64,000 nucleotides of DNA from Pirellulales bacterium (GTDB taxonomy: Bacteria > Planctomycetota > Planctomycetia > Pirellulales > PALSA-1355), in assembly GCA_040877415.1 (NCBI GenBank), contig JBBDNV010000128.1:14953-78952 (forward strand). The letters are read 5' to 3'. The notes beneath the pieces are model-generated. The model did not search any database. It was given only the letters and a program-made list of their open reading frames with translations, and was not told the DNA's origin. The translations under genes were made by a program, and so were the position numbers. Below are positions 1,861 through 63,510 of this stretch, piece after piece (the stretch's first letter is position 1; each line of letters opens with the position of its first letter).

Positions 1861-1895
1861 GCAACAAAAATGTACGATTTCCAGGATTTTTTTGG
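1861..1895. promoter_or_regulatory. Variant copy of the AAAAAT..ATTTTT palindromic motif upstream of DUF1501 gene 1
   Basis: The sequence acaaaaatgtacgatttccaggattttttt lies about 170 nt upstream of the DUF1501 start. It has the same AAAAAT/ATTTTT arms as the four consensus copies at 22580, 24075, 29945 and 29973. Confidence 0.3.
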
Positions 1896-19438: not shown

Positions 19439-19460
19439 GTTCAAATCCAGTTGCCCCGAC
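19439..19460. repeat. Direct repeat copy A (GTTCAAATCCAGTTGCCCCGAC) with a tRNA T-loop-like core; left boundary of the low-GC islet
   Basis: It shares GTTCAAATCCAGT with copy B and TCCAGTyGCCyCGACTyT with copy C. It cannot be folded into a full tRNA. Confidence 0.4.
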
Positions 19461-19616
19461 TTTTGGCCGCGACAGCGGCCAAAAATAGAGCAGGAGAGCT
19501 GTAGAGAGGAGAAAGGAGAGCCAAAAGACGAAGAACGTGCGGTCAACCGTTGAAGCACGGCAGGCCCCTCCTGCGGTCTCCTTTCTACTCTCTACTCTCT
19601 CGTCTTTAGGCACCCG

Positions 19617-20614: not shown

Positions 20615-20662
20615 CGGAGCCCCCTTCACCACAGGCCCGGCGAAGGATTGCCCAGGGTGACC

Positions 20663-20686
20663 GTTCAAATCCAGTCGCCTCTCGCC
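20663..20686. repeat. Direct repeat copy B (GTTCAAATCCAGTCGCCTCTCGCC)
   Basis: It shares 13/13 nt with copy A (GTTCAAATCCAGT) and 12/12 nt with copy C (TCCAGTCGCCTC). It sits between the plus-strand gene pair and the minus-strand module. Confidence 0.4.
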
Positions 20687-20812
20687 GCACAGGCGAGGTT
20701 ACGCCGTGAGCTTCACGACCCTTGTCGCGATTTGGACTTCCGGCCCGGAATGCAGGAAGCTTGCCACGTAGTCGTGGACAAACGGTTCAAACGAGCGACA
20801 GTCGCCCCGATC

Positions 20813-21160
20813 TTATCGTAACGTCAAATCCCGTCGTCGGTTGCTACAGCGACTGGGGACCGGATTTGAACTTTTCTGAGCAATCATGCTCCAAATGGCT
20901 TTTGGCTTTCGTCGTCTCGACGGGGCACCTTGGCACTTCGACCTTTCTTGCTCCTGACGAAGTGCATAGCCATCGAGTCCTGAGTTTCGCTTCGTGGGGA
21001 AGACTCGACCGCCAGACTGCTGGTATCCTCCCGGCTGTGTAGCCCACCCCTGTTCTTTCTTCTTCCTCGCAAAGTACACCGCCTCAGCCTTACCTAAATT
21101 TAATTTACCGCACGCTGACGCGCAATCGATTCTTCCCGATACCGAAGATATTCCTTCCAC
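20813..21160 (-). pseudogene. Orphan-like gene fragment created by a ~135 bp duplication of the 3' region of the 270-aa gene
   Basis: The aa stretch GKAEAVYFARKKKEQGWATQPGGYQQSGGRVFPTKRNSGLDGYALRQEQE is about 90% identical to the C-terminal region of the 21530..22342 product. The flanking sequence is unrelated. It overlaps the 151-aa gene by 61 nt. Confidence 0.4.
20937..21072. repeat. ~135 bp direct DNA repeat, copy 1 (about 90% identical to 21719..21855)
   Basis: The near-identical string acgaagtgcatagccatcgagtcctgagtttcgctt.gtggggaagac...ctgttctttcttcttcctcgcaaagta occurs in both copies. Confidence 0.7.
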
Positions 21161-21555
21161 AACTTCAGCATTTGCACAACTTCATCGACGAGTTCAAGGC
21201 AATCGGTGTTGCCGCATTGTGCTGCCGCGTGAGCGCATTCGTCCATGAGCGCGTGAAACCGAGGCAATTGTTCGAGCGCCCACGTTTCCGACGCCGTCCA
21301 TTGAGGTGCGCTCGTGATAAAACCATCGAGCTGGATGTCAAACGCGAGGTACGTGTAGACAAACGCCGAGAATTTCCAAACCTTGCTGTCTGTCGCCGAT
21401 CTCCACTCCTGGTCGATAGGAGTTTCGTAAAGCCCCAGTTCGCACCCTCCGCAATTGAGTAAGCATTCGTCGAACGCGCACAGAAATCTTTTTGCGGGAT
21501 GCGTGTCCTCCAACGACATGACTGGACGATTAATGGTCTTGCGGCGATGTCTCAT
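21100..21555 (-). CDS. Hypothetical Cys-rich cytoplasmic protein, candidate immunity/partner protein of the upstream 270-aa gene
   Basis: The 151-aa ORF has diverse, non-GC-biased composition (ECLLNCGGCELGLYETPIDQEW...). It overlaps the upstream gene by 26 nt (translational coupling). No family was recognised. Confidence 0.45.
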   Translation of the reverse strand: MRHRRKTINRPVMSLEDTHPAKRFLCAFDECLLNCGGCELGLYETPIDQEWRSATDSKVWKFSAFVYTYLAFDIQLDGFITSAPQWTASETWALEQLPRFHALMDECAHAAAQCGNTDCLELVDEVVQMLKLWKEYLRYREESIARQRAVN

Positions 21556-22342
21556 TTTGTCGATTTTTTGCCTGTTTGATCGCGCGCTGTAACGCAGCTT
21601 CCAGCTCAGGATCGTCTAGCCGATCCGGGTGTCCTGTCCGCCCTTCCCCGGCTACACTAGCCTGCCCGCGTAAGTATTCAGGATCGTGCCCTTGCGCTAG
21701 TCCTCGCCTGAAGAAGTCTTCTTGCTCTTTACGAAGTGCATAGCCATCGAGTCCTGAGTTTCGCTTAGTGGGGAAGACGCGCCCGCCAGACTGCTGGTAA
21801 CCTCTCGGCTGTACTGCCCACCCTTGTTCTTTCTTCTTCCTCGCAAAGTATACCGCTTCCGCCTTGCCAAGAAAATCCATGGCAGACTTGTGAACGAGCG
21901 ACATCCGGTCGCCGGTCGGCTTAAAGCCTTGCGCCTCGGCGCCGAGCACGGCGGTGTTGAAGATCTGCACGGCATCGTCACGCGAGAGAGTTCCAGCTCG
22001 AACCCGTTTCTCAAGCTCGTAGACCCAGATCTGTGGCATCGCCTGAACGCCGGGCACGCGAGCCCAATAGGCCCCCAGGATGGCATTGCGAAGGCCACCT
22101 ATGAATGCGCCGGCTCCGATACCCGCCCCCACCGCTGCGCCAGCGCCGGCCCCGCTTCCGACTTTGGGAAGCCAAGAGCTCGTCGGCCCCGTCGTTGGCC
22201 AAGTCGACGATTGTGCGCCGCTGAAAGAAACGAGCTGCGCGGTTGTTTGGTCCCGTTGAAACGCCGCAGTTTGAATCGGATTGGATTCGGCGCCGCTTAC
22301 TTCGCAAAGCAACGCCAACAGCCGGTCACTCCAGACAGCCAA
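21530..22342 (-). CDS. Hypothetical protein with a glycine-zipper segment (GSGAGAGAAVGAGIGAGAFIGG); its C-terminal portion is duplicated downstream
   Basis: The 270-aa ORF is in the low-GC islet. It has a Gly/Ala zipper typical of membrane-inserting peptides or toxins. Its C-terminal 110 aa contain the duplicated module. Confidence 0.5.
   Translation of the reverse strand: MAVWSDRLLALLCEVSGAESNPIQTAAFQRDQTTAQLVSFSGAQSSTWPTTGPTSSWLPKVGSGAGAGAAVGAGIGAGAFIGGLRNAILGAYWARVPGVQAMPQIWVYELEKRVRAGTLSRDDAVQIFNTAVLGAEAQGFKPTGDRMSLVHKSAMDFLGKAEAVYFARKKKEQGWAVQPRGYQQSGGRVFPTKRNSGLDGYALRKEQEDFFRRGLAQGHDPEYLRGQASVAGEGRTGHPDRLDDPELEAALQRAIKQAKNRQNETSPQDH
21719..21855. repeat. ~135 bp direct DNA repeat, copy 2
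   Basis: See copy 1 at 20937..21072. Confidence 0.7.
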
Positions 22343-22358
22343 CTCTCGGTAAAAAAGT

Positions 22359-22376
22359 TCTAACGGTATCCAGTCG
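22359..22376. repeat. Direct repeat copy C (TCCAGTCGCCTCGACTCT); right boundary of the low-GC islet
   Basis: It shares 12/12 nt with copy B and 15/18 nt with copy A. Confidence 0.4.
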
Positions 22377-22579
22377 CCTCGACTCTGAAATCGAACAGCC
22401 CTTCATCGATCACGGTGCAGGGCTGTTCGTCGTTTCAGGAATGCGACTTACGGCGAATGCCAAATAAGTGGGCTGGGTTCAAATCAAGCGCGAGAAAGAC
22501 CGGGCGACGTCCAAAGTTTCCTACTGTTGGCTTTGGCGAGTTCAAACATCCCGTCGCCCCGCAACAAGATGATCGTGCC

Positions 22580-22602
22580 AGAAAATCGGTCGTTTTTCGA
22601 GA
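22580..22602. promoter_or_regulatory. 21-bp palindromic motif, copy 1 (agaaaatcggtcgtttttcgaga)
   Basis: Consensus cAAAAATCGGTCnTTTTTCGA with AAAAAT/ATTTTT arms. It lies immediately 3' of the DUF1501 gene 2 stop. Confidence 0.45.
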
Positions 22603-22617
22603 TCACTGAACGCGGCA

Positions 22618-24015
22618 TCACCCGATGATCTCCTTCACCACTTCGCCGCGGGAGATGGGGAACGGACGTCCGAGCGCGTCGTGCAGTTCGGCCGTCGGAG
22701 AATAGCCCAGGCAATGGTAAAGGGTGGCCAGCAGGTCCGGTGGGCGGACCAGTCCTTCCATCGGTTCGCCGCCGATCGCGTCGGACGCGCCGTGCACGTG
22801 TCCCCCACGGATGCCGCCTCCGGCCATGGCCACCGAAAACACATTTCCCCAATGATCGCGGCCGCCCGCCGCGTTGATTTTTGGAGTGCGACCGAACTCC
22901 GCCAGACAAACGACCAACGTGTCGTCGAGCATGCCGCGATCGACCAAATCGCCGAGCAAGGCCGAATACGCCTGGTCGAACTGCGGCAGCAGCACGCTGC
23001 GCAGCCGCTGGATCTCCCGGGTGTGTGAATCCCAGCACGGGGTATCTGAAGGCTCGTCGGGAGAGCGAAACCAATTGACTTGAACTAAGCTCACGCCCGC
23101 TTCCACCAACCGGCGAGCCAAGAGCACGCTCTGACCGAACTGCGTGCGCCCGTAACGATCGCGGGCGGCGGCTGGCTCAGCTTCGAGCTGGAAGGCGGCT
23201 CGCGAACGTGGCGACGTGAGCAGATCGAACGCCTGCCGCGTGGCGGCGTCGAACGGCGCCAGCGCTCCGCCGCGCTCGACGGCCGCGCGGTGCCCGTTCA
23301 TCACGGACAAAAGGGACCGTCGCCCTTCGAGCCTGGTCAGCGGCAAGTCAGTCGGCAGCGTAAATTCCGGAATCCTGAAGTTGGCCGACGCCGGCTCGCA
23401 GCGGAACATCCACGGGTCGAACGCACGACCGAGGAACCCGGCGTCTTGCCCCGGCCAAATGGAACCATCCGTATTGAAGATCTGGTGCGGCAATCGCACG
23501 GCCGAGGGCAGTGACGTAGCGCCGTCACGGAGGCGGCGAATCATCGAACCGAAACTCGGCCAGTTGTTGGGCGCGCCCGGATTGGCATTCTCCATGTTCA
23601 TCGGCGCATGGGGCTGACCGGTCAACATGTAGTAGCCGCTCGATGAATGGGCGTTGTCGCCCGTTCGCACGGCGCGCAACAGGCACAGGTGCCTGGCCAA
23701 CAAGGATGTCTTGGGCAGCAATTCGGCCACGTTCAGGCCGGGTACCGTCGTGGCAATGGACTTGAGTTCGCCGCGGACCTCGATGGGAGCGTCGGGCTTG
23801 GGGTCCCAGGTGGAATGCTGGGCGGGCCCCCCGAACAGAAACAGAACGATGCATGACTTGGCGCGCCCGCGACGAGGCGCGGCGTCTTCGGCGGCCGCCT
23901 GCCGCAACAAGTCGGGCAATGTCAAACCGGCCACGCCAAGCGACCCAATTCGCAGCATCTCTCGTCGCGAAATTCCATCGCACAATCGCACCGGCTGCGA
24001 CTCAATCGTGAACAT
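22618..24015 (-). CDS. DUF1501 family protein with a twin-arginine signal (second copy)
   Basis: The ATG at 24015 gives MFTIESQPVRLCDGISRREMLRIGSLGVAGLTLPDLLRQAAA. It carries DUF1501 motifs (GGPAQHSTWDPKP, AEFGRTP, GRDHW). The track ORF start at 24126 is an extension. Confidence 0.85.
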   Translation of the reverse strand: MFTIESQPVRLCDGISRREMLRIGSLGVAGLTLPDLLRQAAAEDAAPRRGRAKSCIVLFLFGGPAQHSTWDPKPDAPIEVRGELKSIATTVPGLNVAELLPKTSLLARHLCLLRAVRTGDNAHSSSGYYMLTGQPHAPMNMENANPGAPNNWPSFGSMIRRLRDGATSLPSAVRLPHQIFNTDGSIWPGQDAGFLGRAFDPWMFRCEPASANFRIPEFTLPTDLPLTRLEGRRSLLSVMNGHRAAVERGGALAPFDAATRQAFDLLTSPRSRAAFQLEAEPAAARDRYGRTQFGQSVLLARRLVEAGVSLVQVNWFRSPDEPSDTPCWDSHTREIQRLRSVLLPQFDQAYSALLGDLVDRGMLDDTLVVCLAEFGRTPKINAAGGRDHWGNVFSVAMAGGGIRGGHVHGASDAIGGEPMEGLVRPPDLLATLYHCLGYSPTAELHDALGRPFPISRGEVVKEIIG

Positions 24016-24074
24016 GGTTGTGATCTGTCGGACGGTGCGACCATCGCTGCACCCCGGCAGCGTCAGATTCTGGC

Positions 24075-24098
24075 CGCTCCTGGTCAAAAATCGGTCAT
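24075..24098. promoter_or_regulatory. 21-bp palindromic motif, copy 2 (tcaaaaatcggtcatttttcgaca), about 60 nt upstream of the DUF1501 gene 2 start
   Basis: This is the best palindrome of the family. Its position is consistent with an operator or promoter element. Confidence 0.5.
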
Positions 24099-24137
24099 TT
24101 TTCGACACGGCAAGGGGAACAAGCAAAGGACCGTAAT

Positions 24138-25283
24138 CTAATGCGGCGATCGAAGTTCACCACACGCAAAAAGCGCGAGGACGGCATACGCGGTCCCCGC
24201 GTTGGAGATGAGATGCCGCGTGTGCCACGCTTGGGACGGAGTGAACCACCGACCGCTTTCACGCTGATTACTTTTCAGCCACGTAAGGCCTCGCTGCAGA
24301 CGAGGATCGCCAGCTGACAGGCCTGCCTGACGAGCCACGAAGATAACGAAGCCTGTAGCGTATCCGTCACTCGAGAGAGAACTCTTGTAGGCGTCCTCAC
24401 GCCCAATGTAGGGAAGGAACTGGGTCCCGTACCCCTTTTCAGCCTTTGCTTTGGTCACTCGATCAGTCTCCAGCGACGGATCGTTGGCGTTGTCAACGAG
24501 GTTGGCCATGGACCAACCGCCATCGGGCCGCTGGACGTCCATCAGATTTGCCAGAATCTCTGCCTTGGCCTCAGCCGGCAGCAGGTCGTCAACGTAAATC
24601 GACGCCCAGAGCAACATCGCTTTCTGGTGAAGACTGACTGCCGTCGTTCTTCTCAAGAATCGACGAACGCCCTCGATTCCCGCTTTGGCTGTCGGGGTGT
24701 TGGCATAATCGCCCGGAGCCATTCCGGTTCCGACGGCAGCCAAGGTGACTCCGTAATGTTCATCAATCTTCAAGGGCGGTGTATCTCTGAACGGCCAGGC
24801 CCAGCCTCCGTCTGAGCGCTGAAGCGTCCACATGTGGTCGAGCGCTTGGCGGGTAAGCGGATGCAACTTGCCGGTCAGCCAGCGGTCGTTGAGGGCCATT
24901 GCCGAGGCCACGCCAATGGCAACGGCTCCGTCGACATCCTTGCACGAATAGTCGGGCATCGCCTCCCGCTTCCCTGCGACAATTTCCTCGAAGAATTGCC
25001 GAACTTCTGCTGATTGTGGCGAGACACTACCCAGTGTCGGCCGGGCCATCAAGTATGGGAACATCGTGTGGCACGCCGTGCAGGCATGAGTTTTCTGCCA
25101 GTCCAGCGCGGCGCTGTCGAGGTAGCGAGCCGCTCGCTCCAGGGAGAATTCCTTCGCGTGAGGCTCGTTTGGTGCAATGTCCGCAGGCGATTCGACAGAT
25201 TCCGGAGTTATTGGTTCCGTGGCTTTCGACACGGACGCGATGCAAGCGGTGACAATAAGGATTGGCCCGGCGAGTTTTCTCAT
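24138..25283 (-). CDS. Secreted c-type heme (CxxCH) protein with prenyltransferase/squalene-oxidase-like repeats
   Basis: A signal peptide is present. The heme motif is HACTACH. QW-type repeats are QRSDGGWAW, QRPDGGWS and NQRESGRWF. Confidence 0.6.
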   Translation of the reverse strand: MRKLAGPILIVTACIASVSKATEPITPESVESPADIAPNEPHAKEFSLERAARYLDSAALDWQKTHACTACHTMFPYLMARPTLGSVSPQSAEVRQFFEEIVAGKREAMPDYSCKDVDGAVAIGVASAMALNDRWLTGKLHPLTRQALDHMWTLQRSDGGWAWPFRDTPPLKIDEHYGVTLAAVGTGMAPGDYANTPTAKAGIEGVRRFLRRTTAVSLHQKAMLLWASIYVDDLLPAEAKAEILANLMDVQRPDGGWSMANLVDNANDPSLETDRVTKAKAEKGYGTQFLPYIGREDAYKSSLSSDGYATGFVIFVARQAGLSAGDPRLQRGLTWLKSNQRESGRWFTPSQAWHTRHLISNAGTAYAVLALFACGELRSPH

Positions 25284-25545
25284 GGCGTAAGCATACCGCT
25301 TGGAGGATTCGAACGAAAGTTAAAAACGTTGGTTTGCTGCGGCTCGCAGCAGGGCCAAATCGGCGCGAACTCGCAGCCGCGCGTCCTTCCGACAATACGC
25401 GTGAATTCTCGGGACGCTAAGACGGTCCTGTAAAACGGATGAGTTTTTGACACAGTCGGCGAGACGCGTCATCAAACGGTGGTTATTCGGCGCGTCGCAA
25501 GCAAGTCATGAGTTGACGCCGAGTGGAGCGGCAAGATGACGTAAG

Positions 25546-27960: not shown

Positions 27961-28301
27961 ATTGTGGACTTCGGGCAGCAGCCCCGCAGCTGAAGCTTAG
28001 GAGTTTTTATTCTACCATGAGTTCTGAGTCACGACACAAGTGCTTAAGCGGTGCCCTAAAGATCGCCAATCGTGCGGTAGCCGGTCGTCAGACGGAGTGC
28101 AATTACGCATCACGGCAGAAAACCAAGTATCGTTGGGTTCTCGGCACGTCTCATAAAACCCCACATCGGCCGTTTCTCGGGACACCGGCTGGAGGTGCGT
28201 AAGAGAGGAGGCGTTTTTCGAGGCGAGCAGCGTCAACTTCCGGATTACAATGCGTGGCCGAGGGCACATCCATACGATGCTAGATTGTCGAGGCCCCAGC
28301 G

Positions 28302-29816
28302 ATGAACCGGGCGTCCGCAAGCGAACTCATTCCCCTTGTTGCGCAAGCGGCTGCACACGCAGGGCAGTTGGCGCTGGTGACAACCGAAGGGCGCTTCAGC
28401 TACGAGCAACTGCTGGACGCTTCGGCGCGCGGCGCATCGGTCCTTCTCGACGGACGTAAAGATCTCCGCGAGGCGCGGGTCGCATTCTTGCACCCGCCCG
28501 GCTTTGGCTACGCGACAACCCAATGGGCAATCTGGCGGGCGGGAGGCGTCGCCGTGCCCTTGGCCGTGATGCACCCACCCGCGGAGTTGGCCTACGTAAT
28601 CGAAGATTCGCAGGCTTCCACCGTGGTGGCCGACCCGGATTTACGGTCCATCGTGCAACCGCTGGCTGAAAAGTCCGGTTTACGGTTTGTCCTTAGCTCA
28701 CATGTCACCACGGGGCCGGCCAAATCACTGCCCCAGGTCGATCCGGCACGACGGGCGATGATCCTTTACACCAGCGGCACGACCAGCCGGCCCAAAGGTG
28801 TTGTTTCGACTCACGAAATGATTGCCGCTCAGATTGGCTCGCTGGTCGAAGCATGGGAGTGGACGGCAAACGATCACATTCTCCACGTGCTGCCATTACA
28901 CCACGTCCACGGAATCATCAATGCCTTGAGCTGCGCGCTGTGGTGTGGTGCAACCTGCCAGATGCTGCCGAAGTTCGATGCCCGGGAAGTCTGGCAGCGG
29001 ATCTGTCGGTCACACGAGCTGACCTTGTTCATGGCAGTCCCGACGATCTACGCGAAATTGATCGCCGAGTGGGAAACGGCATCGCCCGAAGATAAGAAAA
29101 TGATGTCTCAGGGCTGCAAGCGGCTCCGGTTGATGGTCTCTGGCTCGGCTGCCCTGCCTGTCAGTATGTTCGAAAAGTGGCAGTCAATCAGCGGTCACGC
29201 GCTCCTGGAGCGCTACGGCATGACCGAGATCGGCATGGCACTCTCGAATCCCCTCCGCGGCAAGCGGAAGCCTGGATACGTTGGCTTGCCGTTGCCGGGA
29301 GTCGAGGTCCGGTTGGTCGGCGACGACGGCCGACCGCCGGACGATGGATGTCCCGGCGAGATTCAAGTCAGGGGTCCGAACGTCTTTAAGGAATACTGGC
29401 GGCGCCCGGAGGCCACCCGTGCGGCGTTTACCGACGACGGTTGGTTCAGGACCGGCGACATCGCGGTGCGCGAAAGCGGAGTTTTTCGCATCCTGGGAAG
29501 GAATTCAGTCGACATCATCAAGACCGGTGGATACAAAGTATCGGCATTAGAGATCGAGGAAGTGCTGCTCGAACACGAGGCCGTCCGGCAATGCGCCGTG
29601 GTCGCTATCGAGGACCCCGAGTGGGGAGAGCGGGTTGGCGCAGCCGTTGTGCTTAGGCCCGGGCAGGATCTCACCTTAAGCCAGTTGCGCGCCTGGGCGA
29701 AGCGGCGCTTGGCCCCGTACAAGGTTCCAAGCAAATTGATTACGCTCGATGAGCTTCCGCGCAACACCATGGGGAAAGTGACCAAGCCCAAGGTCGTCGA
29801 ACTCTTTGACCGCTGA
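28302..29816 (+). CDS. AMP-dependent synthetase/ligase (acyl-CoA synthetase family)
   Basis: The AMP-binding motif is YTSGTTSRPKGV. Also present are GYGMTE, TGDIAV, and a C-terminal K in GKVTKPKV. Confidence 0.85.
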   Translation: MNRASASELIPLVAQAAAHAGQLALVTTEGRFSYEQLLDASARGASVLLDGRKDLREARVAFLHPPGFGYATTQWAIWRAGGVAVPLAVMHPPAELAYVIEDSQASTVVADPDLRSIVQPLAEKSGLRFVLSSHVTTGPAKSLPQVDPARRAMILYTSGTTSRPKGVVSTHEMIAAQIGSLVEAWEWTANDHILHVLPLHHVHGIINALSCALWCGATCQMLPKFDAREVWQRICRSHELTLFMAVPTIYAKLIAEWETASPEDKKMMSQGCKRLRLMVSGSAALPVSMFEKWQSISGHALLERYGMTEIGMALSNPLRGKRKPGYVGLPLPGVEVRLVGDDGRPPDDGCPGEIQVRGPNVFKEYWRRPEATRAAFTDDGWFRTGDIAVRESGVFRILGRNSVDIIKTGGYKVSALEIEEVLLEHEAVRQCAVVAIEDPEWGERVGAAVVLRPGQDLTLSQLRAWAKRRLAPYKVPSKLITLDELPRNTMGKVTKPKVVELFDR

Positions 29817-29944
29817 AGAGAACCGTTCAGCGCAACGACCAACGGAACGAGACTCTGCCTTCGAATCGCAATGGCCAAAGGGCAACTCACCGGACTAGGA
29901 ATCAGTCTGTCGATGGCGAACCGTGGCAGACAAATGCCCCGCCG

Positions 29945-29999
29945 GCTCAAAAATCGGTCTTATTTCAGGACGTTCCAAAAATCGGTCGGGTTTGATTGG
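29945..29999. promoter_or_regulatory. 21-bp palindromic motif, copies 3 and 4 in tandem (ctcaaaaatcggtcttatttcagga / tccaaaaatcggtcgggtttgattgga)
   Basis: Two adjacent copies sit 150-200 nt upstream of the small lysine-rich ORF. Confidence 0.45.
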
Positions 30000-30147
30000 A
30001 CAACGCAGAATCGAACTGCGACGATGTGGCGTTGGGGATGCGACCCTACCCTGGCAGGGAAAAATGCTGCGCGGGCGAACTTGAACAGCAGAAGCGAAAA
30101 CGTCGGGCTCACTTGAACGATGACTGACAATAGGAAAGGATCACGCG

Positions 30148-30255
30148 ATGGGAGACAAAGGCGGCAAGAAAGGCAAGGACAAGAGCAAGAAACAGAAGGC
30201 GATGAAACAGGAACAAACGATGAAAGGGAAGCAGGATAAGAACCGGCCGAAGTGA
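30148..30255 (+). CDS. Small lysine-rich protein, 35 aa (MGDKGGKKGKDKSKKQKAMKQEQTMKGKQDKNRPK)
   Basis: It lies in a 1.3 kb stretch without larger credible ORFs. GGAAAGGA is 7 nt upstream of the ATG. It is below the ORF-track size cutoff. Confidence 0.35.
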   Translation: MGDKGGKKGKDKSKKQKAMKQEQTMKGKQDKNRPK

Positions 30256-30569
30256 GGTCGACGCCCGATTGCTGGCCACGAGCGTGGTCCTCTATGCGAG
30301 AAGCCTGGCGGCCGTGCTGAGCCAGAGTCTGTCGGTCGAGGTCTAGCTCTGCGCTCTGCCGAGCGACATGCGGCGCAGCTTCGACGGGTTGATGCGAATG
30401 GCCGAAGAGCACCTCGAGCGGAACGTGCTGAAGGGAGGGCTGTTCGTGTTTGTCAACCGGCACCGCGACCGGGTGAGGCGAGCGTCCGAAACGCCGGTGT
30501 CATCTATCGGTCGTAATTCAGGGATCCGAAGAAACCGATGGATTTCTGGCACTGAAGCCGGGCTGGATG

Positions 30570-31007
30570 TCATGTCAACAGACGAGCGGCACTTCGGGCG
30601 TTCGACCGGAACTGGCGGCGAAGCAATGGCCTGCTGAAGAATTCGATCGTGCGACCGAGCCATCCCCACGGCGTGTCCCATTCGACCTCCACGGTGACGC
30701 GCGTGATTCCGTCAGCTTCTTGGAATCGGTCCTGTCCACGAAACGGCACGCCAAACGGCATTGTGCCCGCGATCTGACGTGAAACGCCTGGCTCACAGGC
30801 CATCACTTCCCAACGCCCCAGCCACTCGCGGCCGAGCAAGCGGATCACTTGTGTGTATCCGGCACCTGTGTGGTCGAACGGTCCGCGGACATCCCGGATC
30901 GAACTCCACTCCTTATTCCATTTCGTCCAGTCCTCAGGATCTGTGAACAGTTTCCAAACCCGGTCCAGCGGCGCCGCGAACTCAGCGGTTTCGATGATGC
31001 GGCCCAT
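30570..31007 (-). CDS. SRPBCC (Bet v1-like, polyketide cyclase/dehydrase fold) family protein
   Basis: The internal ATG at 31007 gives MGRIIETAEFAAPLDRVWKLFTDPEDWTKWN..., typical of the SRPBCC N-terminus. The track ORF extends implausibly upstream. Confidence 0.6.
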   Translation of the reverse strand: MGRIIETAEFAAPLDRVWKLFTDPEDWTKWNKEWSSIRDVRGPFDHTGAGYTQVIRLLGREWLGRWEVMACEPGVSRQIAGTMPFGVPFRGQDRFQEADGITRVTVEVEWDTPWGWLGRTIEFFSRPLLRRQFRSNARSAARLLT

Positions 31008-31243: not shown

Positions 31244-31753
31244 CTCATTTCTCCCTTTTTGTTTGTGTGCGCTGCGGGCGGACAAGGGCTCGGAGTCGAA
31301 TTTACCCCACGGAAACCGGCCCCGATCCCCCTTATCCGTGCTCTAACGACTGAGTTCAGCCGCGTGCCGACCATTGGGTGGCGGCTGTGAACATTCTACC
31401 AGTTTTCCGGCACCACCGCGCTACGCCGGTCGCGCGCGTCATCAATCGGTGGAATGATGGCACGTTCGAGAAATCGTGTGAGATCATGACAAAGCGGACT
31501 GCCGGCGGAAAAATATCATTGGCATTCCAACGAGTGCTTGGCCGCGATCACCGAGACGCGTAAGCGTAACGTGGTGGACGTGGCAAAGCACCTTGTACGA
31601 ACTGAGGAACCGGGGCCGCCCGGAAAAACAGAGGAGAATTCACGATGCGCTAGATGCGAGGGGGGGTGGCGCGATGCTAAGATAGCGAGCATTCCTAGCC
31701 TGGATCGGTTTCGGGCTCAGTTCAAATGGGAAATTTCTGCCAGGAGGCGCATC

Positions 31754-44163: not shown

Positions 44164-44526
44164 GGCGCTATTACCCGTCGCACCAAAGCGGGCACGCAAG
44201 AACTCGAATTTGACGTGCCGCGTGAGCGAATCCCCCTAATGCAAGTTGAGTACCATTTCTCGCCGGGCCAACGTGCCAGACTGTGGCTCCGGACACGGTG
44301 CTCGGCGATAAGGCATTAATCGGTCGGTACTTATATAATAGTTCGGCTGGCTGGAAAAGATAAGTTGCGGAAGATGAGGGAAACAGAGACGCCATAAGCT
44401 CTGCCATTTAGGCAGTTTCCGCCGAATAAGACGGCCGCTGCTTCAGGGGCTCTTTTGGCTGCCCGGACGAACCCGTCGCTTCGCCCGAATCACAAAGTTC
44501 GAGCTGCTTGGATCGCAGGCTGAACG

Positions 44527-44560
44527 GTGCCACGGGTGGCTCGTTCCGCCCGTGCCGGCG
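44527..44560. repeat. REP-like palindromic element, degenerate copy
   Basis: ggtgccacgggtggctcgttccgcccgtgccgg shares ccacgggtggctcgt with the copies at 51731 and 52393. Confidence 0.4.
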
Positions 44561-51708: not shown

Positions 51709-51730
51709 GCGCGCGCTGTTTTTTGACCGG

Positions 51731-51759
51731 TGCCACGGGTGGCTCGTCCACCCGTGGTG
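51731..51759. repeat. REP-like palindromic element (CCACGGGTGG-ctcgt-CCACCCGTGG)
   Basis: A perfect 10-bp stem with a 5-nt loop. It lies between the EF-G terminator and the DUF421 gene. Confidence 0.55.
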
Positions 51760-51783
51760 CGTGCAACCCCCGCTCGCGAGCGC

Positions 51784-52392: not shown

Positions 52393-52419
52393 GCACGGGT
52401 GGACGAGCCACCCGTGGCA
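52393..52419. repeat. REP-like palindromic element, inverted copy (CACGGGTGG-acgag-CCACCCGTG)
   Basis: Same stem as 51731..51759 with the reverse-complement loop. The two copies bracket the DUF421 gene in inverted orientation. Confidence 0.55.
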
Positions 52420-52425
52420 CCGTGG

Positions 52426-53502
<1,077 letters not shown>

Positions 53503-55599: not shown

Positions 55600-55968
55600 A
55601 GGGCTCCTGGGTAACGGGCTTTGATTTTTTTACACCGCCGATCATCGACGTTTCGCTGGCGTGGTTCCGTCGCACGCTGCGGACAGGCGCAGGGCGCCGA
55701 TTATCTCAGCTTTCGGCGTGCTTCGCGACGCCCGACGGCCAGCCTCAAACGGGGGTCGTTTCTCGGCGCCGTAGCCGCCGCCGAGCGGCTACTGGGAAGG
55801 CGCGATTGCGGGCCCGTCGCGGAGGTGCGATTTTGGCCGTGTTTTTGGGGCTTTTTTCGGCGCCAGCCGGCGGCCGGGAACCCTCCTTGACCACCTCCCC
55901 CGGCGGCCCGGAAAAGGGTACAATTCACGCTGCTCGATTGACCGATTTTTGGCTTAAACGGCACCCTC

Positions 55969-57057
55969 TTGTTGGACGGAACCACAGTGGTTAACGGCGT
56001 CTTGACGATCCCCTTATCGGGGATAAGTTTCGGCTCGTCGCAGGCGGCCGATGCGCGCGCGATCCGCTTGTCGCAGTTCGTCGCCGGACCGGAAAACGCG
56101 CTTGTAGCCGCCGCGCTTGGCCCCTTTCTCGATTCAAGGGCGACCTGCTACAGCCCGCTTGTGTTGTGCGGCCCGCACGGCAGCGGAAAGTCGCACCTGG
56201 CGTGTGGTTTGGCCGATTGGTGGCGCCGGCATTTCCCCGACGCTTCGCTCGTGTGCCTCACTGGCTCGGAGTTTGCCCGGGAGCATACGGCCGCGATGGC
56301 CGAAGGCCGACTGGAAGCGTGGCGCGCGGAAGTGCGCGGGGCGGGGTTATTCGTCCTCGACGATCTCGGCGAGTTGGTCGACAAGCGCTCGGCGCAGCGG
56401 GAACTGCTGCACGCGCTGGATGCGTTGTCCGACAGCGGGGGGCTGGTGGTCGTGACGGCTCGAACGTTGCCGGGCCATTGGCCCGTTTTGCTGCCGGCGC
56501 TCGGCGGGCGTTTGTCGGCCGGATTGGCGGTGTCGCTGGCGTTTCCGGCGCGTCCCGCGCGGCGAGTCCTTCTTCAGCAGCTCGCGGCGGGGCGGGGCGT
56601 TTCGCTGCGACCCGAAGCGCTCGACGGCCTGGCCGCCGGGCTCGAGGGTGGCGTGCCGACGTTGATTTCGGCGATTCTCGAATTGGAACTGGCCGCTTGC
56701 GCCCAAGGACAGTCGATCGATTCCGAGCGCGTACGGCAATTCGTTTCCGAGCGGGACGGCGCCGCAAAGCCCACGCTGCGCCAGATCGCCGGGCTGACGG
56801 CGAAGTACTTCGGCTTGAAAGTTTCGGAGCTAAAAGGCCCGGCGCGGCGAAGGTCGCTGGCCGCCGGCCGCGGAGTGGCCATGTACCTGGCGCGGCAATT
56901 GACCAACAGCAGCCTGGGCCAAATCGGCAGCTATTTCGGTGGTCGCGACCACACGACCGTCCTGTACGGGTGCCGCCGGACCGAAAAGCTCTTACACCGC
57001 GATCGGGCGACCCGGCAGGCCGTCACCGAATTGAAAAAACTGCTGGCGTCCTCATGA
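55969..57057 (+). CDS. dnaA: Chromosomal replication initiator DnaA, short form (AAA+ domain III plus DNA-binding domain IV, minimal N-terminus)
   Basis: Walker A is CGPHGSGKSHL. The domain IV signature is LTAKYFGLKVSELKGPARRRSLAAGRGVAMYLARQLTNSSLGQIGSYFGGRDHTTVLYG. The dnaA-dnaN-dciA-gyrB synteny supports the call. The start is TTG 55969 or GTG 55987. Confidence 0.8.
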   Translation: MLDGTTVVNGVLTIPLSGISFGSSQAADARAIRLSQFVAGPENALVAAALGPFLDSRATCYSPLVLCGPHGSGKSHLACGLADWWRRHFPDASLVCLTGSEFAREHTAAMAEGRLEAWRAEVRGAGLFVLDDLGELVDKRSAQRELLHALDALSDSGGLVVVTARTLPGHWPVLLPALGGRLSAGLAVSLAFPARPARRVLLQQLAAGRGVSLRPEALDGLAAGLEGGVPTLISAILELELAACAQGQSIDSERVRQFVSERDGAAKPTLRQIAGLTAKYFGLKVSELKGPARRRSLAAGRGVAMYLARQLTNSSLGQIGSYFGGRDHTTVLYGCRRTEKLLHRDRATRQAVTELKKLLASS

Positions 57058-57400
57058 CGGGGCAAGGTGAACGAATTGTCGTTGCGTTGTTCGATCCACC
57101 ATCGACCCACCAACGTCCACCGACACGACGCGCAGACCCCGGCTCAAAGGACATGACGACAACGGCAGACTGCCGACCGAGGCCCAACACGATGGCGACA
57201 GGTTACTCACCACGCTCGGGCGGCCGCGAGCCGTTCGCAAGTCGTGACGGCGCGGTGCTTAGCGTTGGGCCGCGACGCTGCTTTCGACAGCCGGGTAGCG
57301 CCGTATTACTATTACTTCTGAATACTCAAATATTGAAGAAGAACCAGGCATCATCCGCGTCGAAGCACTCGCACCGTCGAGTCGAAGAAAGGCACCTGGC
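57058..57400. other. Putative oriC (dnaA-dnaN intergenic region): DnaA-box-like array and AT-rich DNA unwinding element
   Basis: Three boxes, gaTCCACCat, gaCCCACCaa and cgTCCACCga, occur at 57095, 57106 and 57116 with 10-11 bp spacing. A roughly 40 bp AT-rich stretch (attactattacttctgaatactcaaatattgaagaagaa) lies at 57304..57343 in an otherwise 67% GC region. Confidence 0.5.
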
Positions 57401-61552: not shown

Positions 61553-61662
61553 GCGCGCGCCGGCCGGCTCGCGATTTCGTCGCGGTGGTTTGCGCATTGC
61601 GAATCGTCCGGTATCATGCAGGGCAACGGACGCCCTCCCTTGAGAAACCGGAGTTCTCCCGC

Positions 61663-63510
61663 ATGACCACTAAGAACCCCGCCCAAACGGCCAATACGAT
61701 TCTCTGCGGCGACTGCATCGAGGGCATGAACGGGCTGGCCGCCGGCGGCGTCGATCTGGCGTTTGCCGATCCGCCGTTCAATATCGGATACGACTACGAT
61801 GTCTACGACGATCGGCAAGAGCGCGACAAATACCTGGCCTGGTCGCGCGATTGGATTGCGGCCGTTTACCGGGTGCTCAAGCCCGATGGGGCGTTCTGGC
61901 TGGCCATCGGCGACGAATACGCGGCCGAGCTGAAAATCGAGAGTCAGAAAATCGGCTTTCACTGCCGCAGTTGGGTCGTCTGGTACTACACGTTCGGCGT
62001 CAACTGCGACAGGAAGTTCACCCGCTCCCACGCCCACCTGTTCCACTTCGTCAAGAACCCGAAAGAATTCACCTTTCGGGCCGACGCCCTGGAAAACCGC
62101 ATCCCGTCGGCGCGGCAACTGGTCTACAACGACAAGCGCGCCAATTCCACCGGGCGGCTGCCCGACGACACGTGGATCATTCGCCCCGCGGAATTCGCCG
62201 GGCTGGTGGACGACGACGGCGCCTGGCCGCCGGCGAAACTGCCGGCGCCGGCGGATCAAGACCAATCCTGGACGCTGCGGCCGCAAGATCTCGGCGAATG
62301 TTTTGGGCCGGCCGAAAACACCTGGTACTTTCCCCGCGTGGCCGGCACGTTCAAGGAACGGGCCGGCTTTCATGGCTGCCAGATGCCCGAGCAGCTATTG
62401 GCGCGAATCATTCGCGCGTGCTCCGAGGAAGGGGAGCTCGTGCTGGACCCGTTTTCCGGCAGTGCCACGACCGCGGCGGTCGCCAAGAAGCTCGGCCGGC
62501 GCTACCTGGCGTTCGACGTTTCGGCCGATTATGTAAAGCTGGGGCTGGCGCGCCTCGAGCGCACGCGCGTCGGCGATCGATTGGACGGGTCGGCCGAACC
62601 GCTTATGTCAGCTCCCAGAACGGACAAGCCGCGATCGCGTTCCCGATCCGTCAAAGGCGCGCGAAAATCGACCGCGATTGCAGTTCAACCGGACTATCGA
62701 CAAACCGAAGAGTGTTACGACCTGGTTCAACTTGAGATGACGCTGCGCGGCATCGTCGAGGCGTTTCGCCTCGTGCACGACGGGTTTTCGGCCGATCGCG
62801 TGGTGACGGATCCGAGCCTCGACAACCGCTTCGTGGAACAATGCCGAAAGTTGGGCCTGATGGGCGACGCCCGCACCTGGAACATCCTCTTGTTTCGGCT
62901 GCGAAAAGCCGGCAAGCTCGCGCACCTGCCGACCCGGGAGCGAACCGCAATCTCCTGGGAAGCGTGCGACGACTATTTCTTTGCCAGTGAGATCGCGCTT
63001 GAGCTCGTGCTCGCTTCGGGCAAGGCCGAGAGCCTCGACGAGATTCTGTGCGATCCCGACCTGGCCGGCGAGTTCGACAAGCTGGCCGCCGATTTCGCGC
63101 CGGGGCGGCAGTCGTTCGAGTACCGCTGGGCGGCGCTGAAGCTTCGCAAGCAGGCGAAAATTGCGCGCAGCCGCGGCGCCGTGCTGGTGCCGCCCGCGCG
63201 CTTGAGCCGCGAAACGCCTGTTGATCAGCTCGACGTGCGCGGGATTCCGCCGCGGCCGGGAGTCTATTTGCTCAGTGGAAACAAGTCGCAAAAGCTGTAC
63301 GCGGGCGAGGCGCTGAATCTGCGGAGCCGGCTGGAAACGCAGTTTGAATCCGGCCGGCGCGTAGTTTTGGGCCGTTTCCCCGGGCCGCTCTCCTTGCGGA
63401 CCTTCCTGACGCACACGCTACCTGCCGAAATGCTTGCGTGGCAGAGTTGTCTGGTGCGAAAATACAAGCCTCGGCTTAACTATCGGGAGCTGCGCGCGGT
63501 AGGGTCCTGA
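61663..63510 (+). CDS. Beta-class DNA methyltransferase (N6-adenine or N4-cytosine) fused to a C-terminal GIY-YIG (UvrC-like) nuclease domain
   Basis: Motif IV is [12 protein letters not shown]. It precedes motif [16 protein letters not shown], which is the beta-class order. The C-terminus [30 protein letters not shown]...[11 protein letters not shown] matches the UvrC/I-TevI GIY-YIG consensus. The single in-frame ORF of 616 aa is embedded in the artefactual 1405-aa track ORF 59293..63510. Confidence 0.75.

Follow-up and report, generated by a model that had tools for sequence, protein, structure and literature searches.

What is the short AT-rich motif that recurs between the genes of a Pirellulales bacterium, on both sides of a gene of the DUF1501 family among other places, and what might read it? 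We addressed this question in one 64-kb stretch of the source genome (contig JBBDNV010000128.1, positions 14,953 to 78,952; 62.9% guanine plus cytosine, GC), hereafter the window. A preliminary description had listed four good copies and a looser variant of a near-palindromic motif, and had suggested an operator or an alternative-sigma promoter serving DUF1501, DUF1553 or cytochrome-c genes. Our analysis shows that the repeat exists, is non-random, strictly intergenic, sharply bounded and partly inherited. Its conserved unit is an asymmetric 12-mer, which we tentatively interpret as a cis-acting site for a lineage-specific, sequence-specific DNA-binding protein.

A strictly intergenic repeat with an exact 12-bp core

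An earlier 20-mer consensus, searched with up to three mismatches, matched the window at 22581, 24086 and 29949 (three matches against 0.03 expected; none of 100 shuffles reached three), and the 10-mer AAAATCGGTC occurs exactly five times, at 22582, 24087, 29950 and 29978 on the forward strand and at 55940-55949 on the reverse strand. The recurring AT-rich motif is therefore real. When the copies are aligned, the conserved unit is the 12-mer CAAAAATCGGTC preceded by C or T, (C/T)CAAAAATCGGTC; the 12-mer is exact at 24085, 29948 and 29976 (+) and at 55940-55951 (−), and has one mismatch at 22580.

Copy 1 (22580..22600, +; AGAAAATCGGTCGTTTTTCGA) has a good right arm and one core mismatch, and lies 17 nt past the stop codon of the DUF1501 gene. 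Copy 2 (24085..24105, +; CAAAAATCGGTCATTTTTCGA) is the only full near-palindrome with an exact core. Copy 3 (29948..29968, +; CAAAAATCGGTCTTATTTCAG) has an exact core and a degenerate right arm, and copy 4 (29976..29996, +; CAAAAATCGGTCGGGTTTGAT), also with an exact core, starts 28 nt after the start of copy 3. Copy 5 (55940..55951, −), in the dnaA leader, is an exact CAAAAATCGGTC, reading GACCGATTTTTG on the forward strand. All four copies listed previously were thus confirmed, that at 22580 in place and the others with their 21-mer starts moved from 24075 to 24085, from 29945 to 29948 and from 29973 to 29976, but the fifth, upstream of dnaA, had been missed.

The dyad symmetry put forward as the defining trait is found in only two of the five copies, and what stays exact is the asymmetric 12-mer. 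The whole near-palindromic 21-mer, continuing as N-TTTTTCGA past the core, is common to copies 1 and 2 only; beyond the core, copies 3, 4 and 5 are degenerate or unrelated, or have no right arm. In the fuller sites (copies 1 and 2 and those of loci L051 and L026, described below), the core stands between an A-tract and a T-tract, TCAAAAA-TCGGTCN-TTTTTCGA. Similarity between copies stops after 21-31 nt.

A weight-matrix scan of the window assigned 26-36 bits to the five copies and 16 bits or less to every other site. The looser variant at 1866..1886 (+; CAAAAATGTACGATTTCCAGG) scored 11.2 bits, lacks the CGGTC core and was outscored by some 14 other sites, and is consequently left out of the family. 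Intergenic DNA makes up ~16% of the window (roughly 10 kb) and contains all five copies; among the commonest 12-mers of the window, CAAAAATCGGTC is the sole one rich in AT. When intergenic sets were simulated, four copies of a 12-mer, whatever its sequence, arose in one of 100 sets under an order-1 Markov model and in none of 100 under an order-3 model. Copies occur on both strands, and their orientation to the flanking genes varies.

A weak second repeat, GCGTCATCAA(A/T)CGGTGG, is present in two intergenic regions (25460-25483 and 31430-31453); its core is like CAAAAATCGGTC (CAWMAAWCGGTS), and it could be a degenerate relative of the motif.

A candidate site for a DNA-binding protein

In copies 3 and 4 the 12-mer is identical, with only about four of the 16 following bases shared, and this sharp end of identity at the core argues for selection on the 12-mer and not for a decaying duplication. 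Sites on both strands and in either orientation are typical of protein-binding sites, not of promoters or RNA signals. Likewise, sharp identity over 12 bp with unrelated flanks, restriction to non-coding DNA and occurrence on either strand are together expected of a site read by a protein. A protein-binding cis-element, as the preliminary description had it, remains the most economical reading of a genuine, above-chance and sharply bounded intergenic repeat, and is the one that we favor, if only tentatively.

Under this reading, the 12-bp core CAAAAATCGGTC would be recognized by a sequence-specific DNA-binding protein. The A-tract/T-tract layout could constitute either an imperfect dyad or two tandem 11-bp units (CGAAAAATGAC / CGATTTTTGAC), and with either layout there would be room for a second subunit, or for DNA bending. 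A protein bound to the dnaA leader could act as a roadblock to transcription. Both the binding and its effect are what we infer from sequence. The settings differ from copy to copy: some sites follow gene ends, one is remote from the promoter it precedes, two form a tandem pair within a long spacer and one belongs to the dnaA leader. Given this variety and the functionally unrelated neighbors, a protein with a general or architectural role seems more plausible than a regulator of one pathway. The putative protein is thus more likely to be general or nucleoid-type than dedicated to DUF1501 genes.

Copies 1 and 2 bracket a single DUF1501 gene

The DUF1501 gene at 22618..24015 (−; Pfam PF07394, E-value 4.5e-92) has its ATG at 24015 and its stop codon at 22618-22620, and exactly this gene is enclosed by copies 1 and 2, which form direct repeats at a distance of 1505 bp. 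Copy 2 is indeed upstream of the start codon, but at 69 nt rather than about 60; in addition, it follows by 32 nt the stop codon (24138-24140) of the preceding gene (24138-25283, −), which has a weak match to the squalene-hopene cyclase C-terminal domain and is termed prenyltransferase-like here. An exact look-up of the DUF1501 protein returned no identical protein on record. Orthologs of 85-94% identity were found on seven independent contigs, with different gene neighbors in each. Contig L053, from the same sample, is 100% identical to the window and hence uninformative on population variation.

At loci L051 and L052 (92% identity), we found the sequence TCGAAAAAGGACCGATTTATGA in the same orientation as copy 2 and 254 nt before the orthologous ATG. 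This site and copy 2 are homologous over 40 nt (82.5%), with 20 of 22 positions identical in the motif and 13 of 20 in the following 20 nt, and the window-L051 homology upstream of the gene starts exactly at the outer edge of the motif. Six orthologous DUF1501 loci have a TATACT box about 45-50 nt before the ATG, followed by a conserved leader; in L051 the motif is ~200 nt upstream of this box. The box is missing in the window, where GAATCT aligns with it and copy 2 stands just upstream of GAATCT. A deletion of ~180 nt in the window relative to L051 (window 24016-24084; L051 9780-9960) took the TATACT promoter and part of the leader, thereby removing the promoter and bringing the motif close to the gene. 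Expression of the DUF1501 gene of the window may be weak, or may come from read-through of the gene before it.

On the other side of the gene, L135 (89% identity) contains TCGAAAGATGACCGTTTTTGA at the place orthologous to copy 1, 17 nt past a stop codon aligned with that of the window, and the flanks are homologous on both sides. There is no copy at the orthologous loci L134, L136, L046 and L048 (four of seven). From the occurrences at L051 (upstream) and L135 (downstream), the pair around the gene is, as far as these alignments tell, inherited from the common ancestor of a sub-clade, with the upstream copy outside the core promoter of the gene.

These data do not agree with a DUF1501 regulon. 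Both copies assigned to DUF1501 genes flank one and the same gene, past its stop and before its start, more than half of the orthologous loci (4/7) are devoid of a copy, and the L051 copy is far from the promoter. The other DUF1501 gene of the window (the first in order; ATG 2059) has merely the weak look-alike at 1866, about 175-190 nt upstream. Cytochrome-c genes fare no better as targets, because no copy is found at the cytochrome-c/HEAT genes of the window (4316, 13212 and about 16300), and we regard the suggested link to DUF1553 as unsupported along with them. A dyad operator of a coherent regulon found no support on similar grounds: two copies follow stop codons, the L051 site is distant from the promoter and the neighbors are unrelated.

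Copies 3 and 4 follow an acyl-CoA synthetase gene

An acyl-CoA synthetase gene (28302-29816, +) precedes copies 3 and 4, which begin 132 and 160 nt beyond its stop codon. As previously noted, this tandem pair precedes a small lysine-rich open reading frame (ORF) of 35 aa (30148-30255, +) that has no family match; the pair is about 150-200 nt before the ORF, with copy 4 about 150 nt upstream. The first ~80 nt past the stop codon of the synthetase gene (29817-29895, compared with L137 7185-7260) are about 90% conserved, for a protein that is 87% identical, and then similarity ends abruptly; this stretch may be a conserved 3' untranslated region element.

An element consisting of the right arm only, GTTTTTCGAGG, lies upstream of the same gene (28213..28223, +), and its kinship to the motif family is uncertain. 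It is kept in the window, L137 and L138, 22-23 nt upstream of the TACAAT box of the synthetase gene (28246-28251), and in L138 an extra TCAAAAA left arm stands beside the conserved GTTTTTCGAGG.

A T-rich element in the dnaA leader

Copy 5 has an M36-type peptidase gene on one side and dnaA on the other, with dnaN and gyrB following dnaA in this order. It is situated 15 nt downstream of a TACAAT box (55919-55924) and 35 nt upstream of the GTG at 55987, which is the dnaA start in the public annotation (product of 356 aa), and occupies about +9 to +21 of the predicted dnaA transcript. The region upstream of dnaA (55780-55990) is 82% identical in the window, L139 and L140, whose DnaA proteins are 74-79% identical. 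The TACAAT box is invariant in these three sequences and retained in the more distant L055 and L054, and the region also contains an invariant GGTACAATTCA box and phased T-tracts (GCGATTTTGG, GTGTTTTTGGGG and GCTTTTTTCGG). The position of copy 5 directly after a conserved −10 box and inside this region speaks in favor of a protein-binding site.

Alignments with L139, L140, L055 and L054 showed no change in the TTTTTGGC part of copy 5 among the three close genomes. The GACCGA of copy 5 is replaced in L139 and roughly kept in the more distant L054 (GCCGATTTTTTCGA), and L140 keeps it with a 1-nt insertion inside the 12-mer. These comparisons indicate that the T-rich element in the dnaA leader is old and that the exact 12-mer is not strictly maintained. 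Among 80 more distant dnaA loci from metagenomes (455 kb), we found no exact 12-mer, and five one-mismatch matches corresponded to the chance level, indicating that the motif is restricted to this lineage.

The encoded DnaA is ~100-150 aa shorter than a typical DnaA, and its length is consistent with a protein lacking the N-terminal domains I-II. The spacer between dnaA and dnaN (57058-57400) contains three direct CCACC-type boxes (GATCCACC, GACCCACC and GTCCACC), spaced by ~10-11 nt at 57094-57122, and farther on, at about 57300-57345, a stretch rich in AT. It looks like a replication origin, with no cluster of canonical TTATCCACA boxes in the spacer and no canonical parS in the whole window. 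Directly after gyrB, an ORF at 61600-63510 (+) matches N6/N4 DNA methyltransferases (PF01555, E-value 1.6e-48).

Occurrence outside the window

We scanned 185,579 species genomes, one per species and the source genome not among them, for exact matches to the 19-mer AAAATCGGTCNTTTTTCGA. The 45 matches obtained were single and in unrelated phyla, which is at chance level (~17 by a rough estimate); four of them, in Bryobacteraceae/Bryobacterales, were discarded as motif copies because they represent one orthologous coding stretch at the end of trpF. The only non-coding look-alike was in L026, a separate metagenome-assembled genome of Planctomycetota, where it occupies a spacer of roughly 1 kb with no convincing genes, about 230 nt after a gene end. 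At L026 3901-3945, the right arm is repeated 20 nt downstream (GTTTTTCGACAC ... ATTTTCCGACAC). Scans of viral contigs gave no match in a first set and five scattered matches in a second one, and hence no link to phages.

Among relatives, L051/L052, L135, L140 and L026 carry one copy each and L054 an approximate one, indicating that the family is older than this genome; the motif is lost at the orthologous loci L134, L136, L046, L048, L137, L138 and L139. Our search of the literature retrieved no described promoter consensus or intergenic repeat of Planctomycetota beyond surveys of repetitive extragenic palindromic (REP) sequences. The element appears to fit no described family and to be restricted to one lineage of Pirellulales.

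Weighing the alternatives

Several points weigh against a protein-binding site. No candidate gene for a binding protein or regulator adjoins any copy, and the neighbors share no theme (DUF1501, prenyltransferase-like, acyl-CoA synthetase, small lysine-rich ORF, dnaA and M36 peptidase). The copies take no consistent position with respect to promoters. They are weakly conserved at orthologous places: copies 3 and 4 are missing from L137 (87% identity) and L138 (86%); copy 1 and its L135 counterpart are ~74% identical, no better than their flanks, with the core mutated in L135; and copy 5 shows the replacement in L139 and the insertion in L140 described above. Additionally, four identical copies are tighter than usual for transcription-factor sites and could instead result from recent copying, and the sample from the source genome amounts to 64 kb.

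The copies could thus be non-functional relics, a short AT-rich segment duplicated a few times whose survival, combined with the A/T-tract bias of intergenic DNA, mimics a motif, which we consider rather unlikely. The pace of change of copy 1 relative to L135, no slower than that of its flanks, fits with this idea, as does the agreement of copies 2 and 3 at eight of 12 further bases left of the core, which a duplication would produce. Similarly, A/T-tract k-mers are in general 5-15 times enriched in intergenic DNA, and most orthologous loci lack the motif. However, bias or decay would not readily explain a 12-mer that is exact in four copies with unrelated flanks, with a tandem pair among them that shows no more than random likeness over its other 16 nt, nor the fact that simulations with the composition of intergenic DNA rarely gave four copies of any one 12-mer. 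Moreover, a copy persists in the dnaA leader across widely diverged genomes.

Recombination offers another explanation, in which the copies would be module boundaries: a core resembling the sites of tyrosine recombinases, with two inverted A/T arms and a 7-bp center, would mark movable gene modules, the recombinase being encoded elsewhere. Several features of the DUF1501 locus suggest it, namely the direct repeats that bracket one gene, the neighbors that differ in every relative examined, and the homology boundary with L051 that coincides with the outer edge of the motif. Furthermore, copies 1-4 share one direction within a lower-GC (0.57-0.60 versus about 0.64) and poorly syntenic stretch at 20-32 kb, and both arms are found in copy 2 only, with copy 1 keeping the right arm and copies 3 and 4 the left one. 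This last pattern is reminiscent of hybrid att sites, but the comparison with L135, which has a full site at the orthologous place, speaks against it: with homologous flanks there, the weak left arm of copy 1 amounts to point changes and not to a junction. Gene order is equally fluid among relatives around the acyl-CoA synthetase gene, so varying neighbors are not peculiar to DUF1501. Additionally, copy 5 is inside a deeply conserved dnaA leader and not at a breakpoint, we observed no target-site duplications and no likeness to attC (no GTTRRRY) or dif, and the window ORFs scanned against Pfam included no integrase, transposase or Xer gene. On balance, we consider recombination unlikely. Planctomycete genomes have a notoriously scrambled gene order, and the boundary of an integrase-less module, if true, would help to explain it; nevertheless, the specific proposal that the 22-bp site bounds a new, integrase-less single-gene module in Pirellulales, moved by recombination at TCAAAAA-TCGGTCN-TTTTTCGA, strikes us as most improbable.

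A role in promoters was also envisaged, with the motif as an UP-like A/T tract, as a weak −10 box (AAAAAT ahead of a GC-rich discriminator) or as the box of an alternative sigma factor. Its one real support is the right arm GTTTTTCGAGG, which three genomes keep ahead of the TACAAT box of the acyl-CoA synthetase gene, at about the position of an UP element. Copy 2, it is true, is just upstream of the GAATCT that aligns with the TATACT of the orthologs, and AAAAAT passes a loose −10 criterion. Conversely, the copies share no second block at constant spacing, whatever the orientation, and the only shared flanking words at equal offsets were two coincidental 7-mers, GATTCTG (copies 2 and 4) and TCTGGCC (copy 2 and L051, the latter by homology). 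Copies 1 and 2 and the sites of L051 and L135 would fire antisense into flanking genes, and in L051 some 200 nt separate the motif from the real promoter downstream of it. The supposed last T of the −10 box is unconserved in the dnaA leader (AAAAAG in L140, AAAAAA in L139), and a scan for sigma-70-type consensus sequences was silent at the copies. An alternative-sigma promoter, including one for an extracytoplasmic function (ECF) sigma factor, was rejected because of the missing second block, the inconsistent orientation and the lack of a copy upstream of the ECF sigma gene of the window (35938). We therefore consider a promoter component of any kind quite improbable.

An element acting at the RNA level (terminator, attenuator, small RNA or protein-binding RNA motif) is scarcely credible: although copies 1 and 2 and the L135 site lie in sense orientation 17-32 nt past stop codons, a T-run follows the GC-rich core on both strands and a terminator scan weakly flagged copy 3, the fold energies of all copies on both strands are like those of shuffled sequences (z-scores from −1.7 to +0.8), any stem is of 3-5 bp or A-U only, terminator-like matches are no commoner than in shuffles, the copies occur in both orientations relative to transcription, and there was no Rfam match at the gathering threshold in the whole window, nor at E-values up to 5 in 29800-30600. 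Both an intrinsic terminator, for lack of a stable hairpin, and a known RNA family were accordingly discarded. The failure of these RNA-level readings counts for the protein-binding one.

As it stands, the motif is a modest, lineage-restricted repeat with nothing mechanistically surprising about it so far, and the idea of a DUF1501 regulon does not hold. The cis-regulatory signals of Planctomycetota are, however, almost unmapped, and a defined 12-bp site, if confirmed, would be a handle for fishing an unknown DNA-binding protein in this phylum.

Other features of the window

A REP-like element is present in three intergenic copies, at 44525-44560 (+), 51728-51760 (+) and 52403-52435 (−), located in the upstream region of sdh, after fusA and between YetF-like and GFO/IDH genes. 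It consists of a perfect 10-bp GC-rich hairpin, CCACGGGTGG-CTCGT-CCACCCGTGG, after CGGTG, with a degenerate 3' arm at 44525.

About 2 kb of lower-GC DNA with no convincing genes (20615-22580) includes a 150-nt direct duplication (20945-21094 and 21719-21868, 90% identical), which carries a promoter-like GCGGTATACT box at 21852 (−). Fragments resembling the T-arm of tRNAs, GTTCAAATCCAGT(T/C)GCC, occur at 19439-19455, 20663-20679 and 20857-20871, with direct repeats 1224 nt apart and an inverted copy nearby. The direct repeats flank a gene of the 23S-rRNA-IVP family and a SUKH-4 immunity gene. ARAGORN called no tRNA there, and a tRNA search of the window was likewise negative; the fragments could be what is left of integration sites. 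At about 19462-19485, TTTTGGCCGCGACAGCGGCCAAAA forms a strong hairpin.

We also noted −10 boxes apparently characteristic of the clade, like (G)G-TA(T/C)A(C/A)T (TACAAT, TATAAT or TATACT), at 28246, 44334, 44621 and 55919 and at orthologous loci. Several of them are confirmed by conservation in relatives, and no recognizable TTGACA-type −35 box accompanies them at 16-18 nt.

Comparison with known systems

Some known elements were set aside. The motif resembles neither the DnaA box (TTATCCACA) nor parS (TGTTNCACGTGAAACA). A terminal repeat of a mobile element, be it a miniature inverted-repeat transposable element or an insertion sequence, had been named as the finding that would speak against a regulatory motif; we looked for one and found no longer body, no paired inverted ends and no duplicated flanks, and no transposase among the Pfam-scanned ORFs of the window. 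The consensuses of sigma-54, IHF, Fis, CodY, cre and H-NS sites resemble the motif only in part.

Uptake signal sequences (USS) and DNA uptake sequences (DUS) occur about once per kb, largely inside genes, and consist of an exact core of 9-12 bases followed by AT-rich tracts. The motif is similar to them in its exact core, AT-rich tracts and identical scattered copies, but five copies in 64 kb, none in coding DNA, led us to reject an uptake sequence; the source organism is not known to be naturally competent.

REP sequences and bacterial interspersed mosaic elements (BIMEs) are extragenic palindromes tagged with GTAG or CGTC (PMC3733652). Like them, the motif is a small intergenic repeat that is often found just past stop codons, whereas it has neither their GC-rich stem nor their tag. 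With arms of A/T only and fold z-scores within the range given above, it was not assigned to this class.

The core sites of tyrosine recombinases (dif, loxP-type sites and integron attC) share with copy 2 the inverted arms of 7-8 bp and the 7-bp center, and with copies 1 and 2 the arrangement as direct repeats around one gene with varying neighbors. Unlike these sites, the motif has no recombinase nearby, no similarity to dif and no GTTRRRY, most copies have lost one arm by ordinary mutation and one is in a conserved leader.

UP elements and A-tract bends resemble the motif in their A5/T5 tracts, which are spaced by about one turn of the helix, and in one case the right arm stands conserved some 40 nt ahead of a predicted transcription start. 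In contrast, most copies of the motif are at no fixed distance from a −10 box, and its invariant part is the mixed-sequence core and not the tracts.

The closest parallel to the protein-binding site that we propose would be found among transcription-factor operators and nucleoid-protein sites with A/T-tract arms. The motif differs from them in that its conserved part is asymmetric, its copies suggest no regulon theme, four of them are unusually uniform in being identical, and orthologous conservation is weak. Nevertheless, like these sites, it spans 12-22 bp, is intergenic, occurs on either strand and is sharply bounded, and it includes dyad-like arms in two copies, one tandem pair and one copy just past a −10 box.

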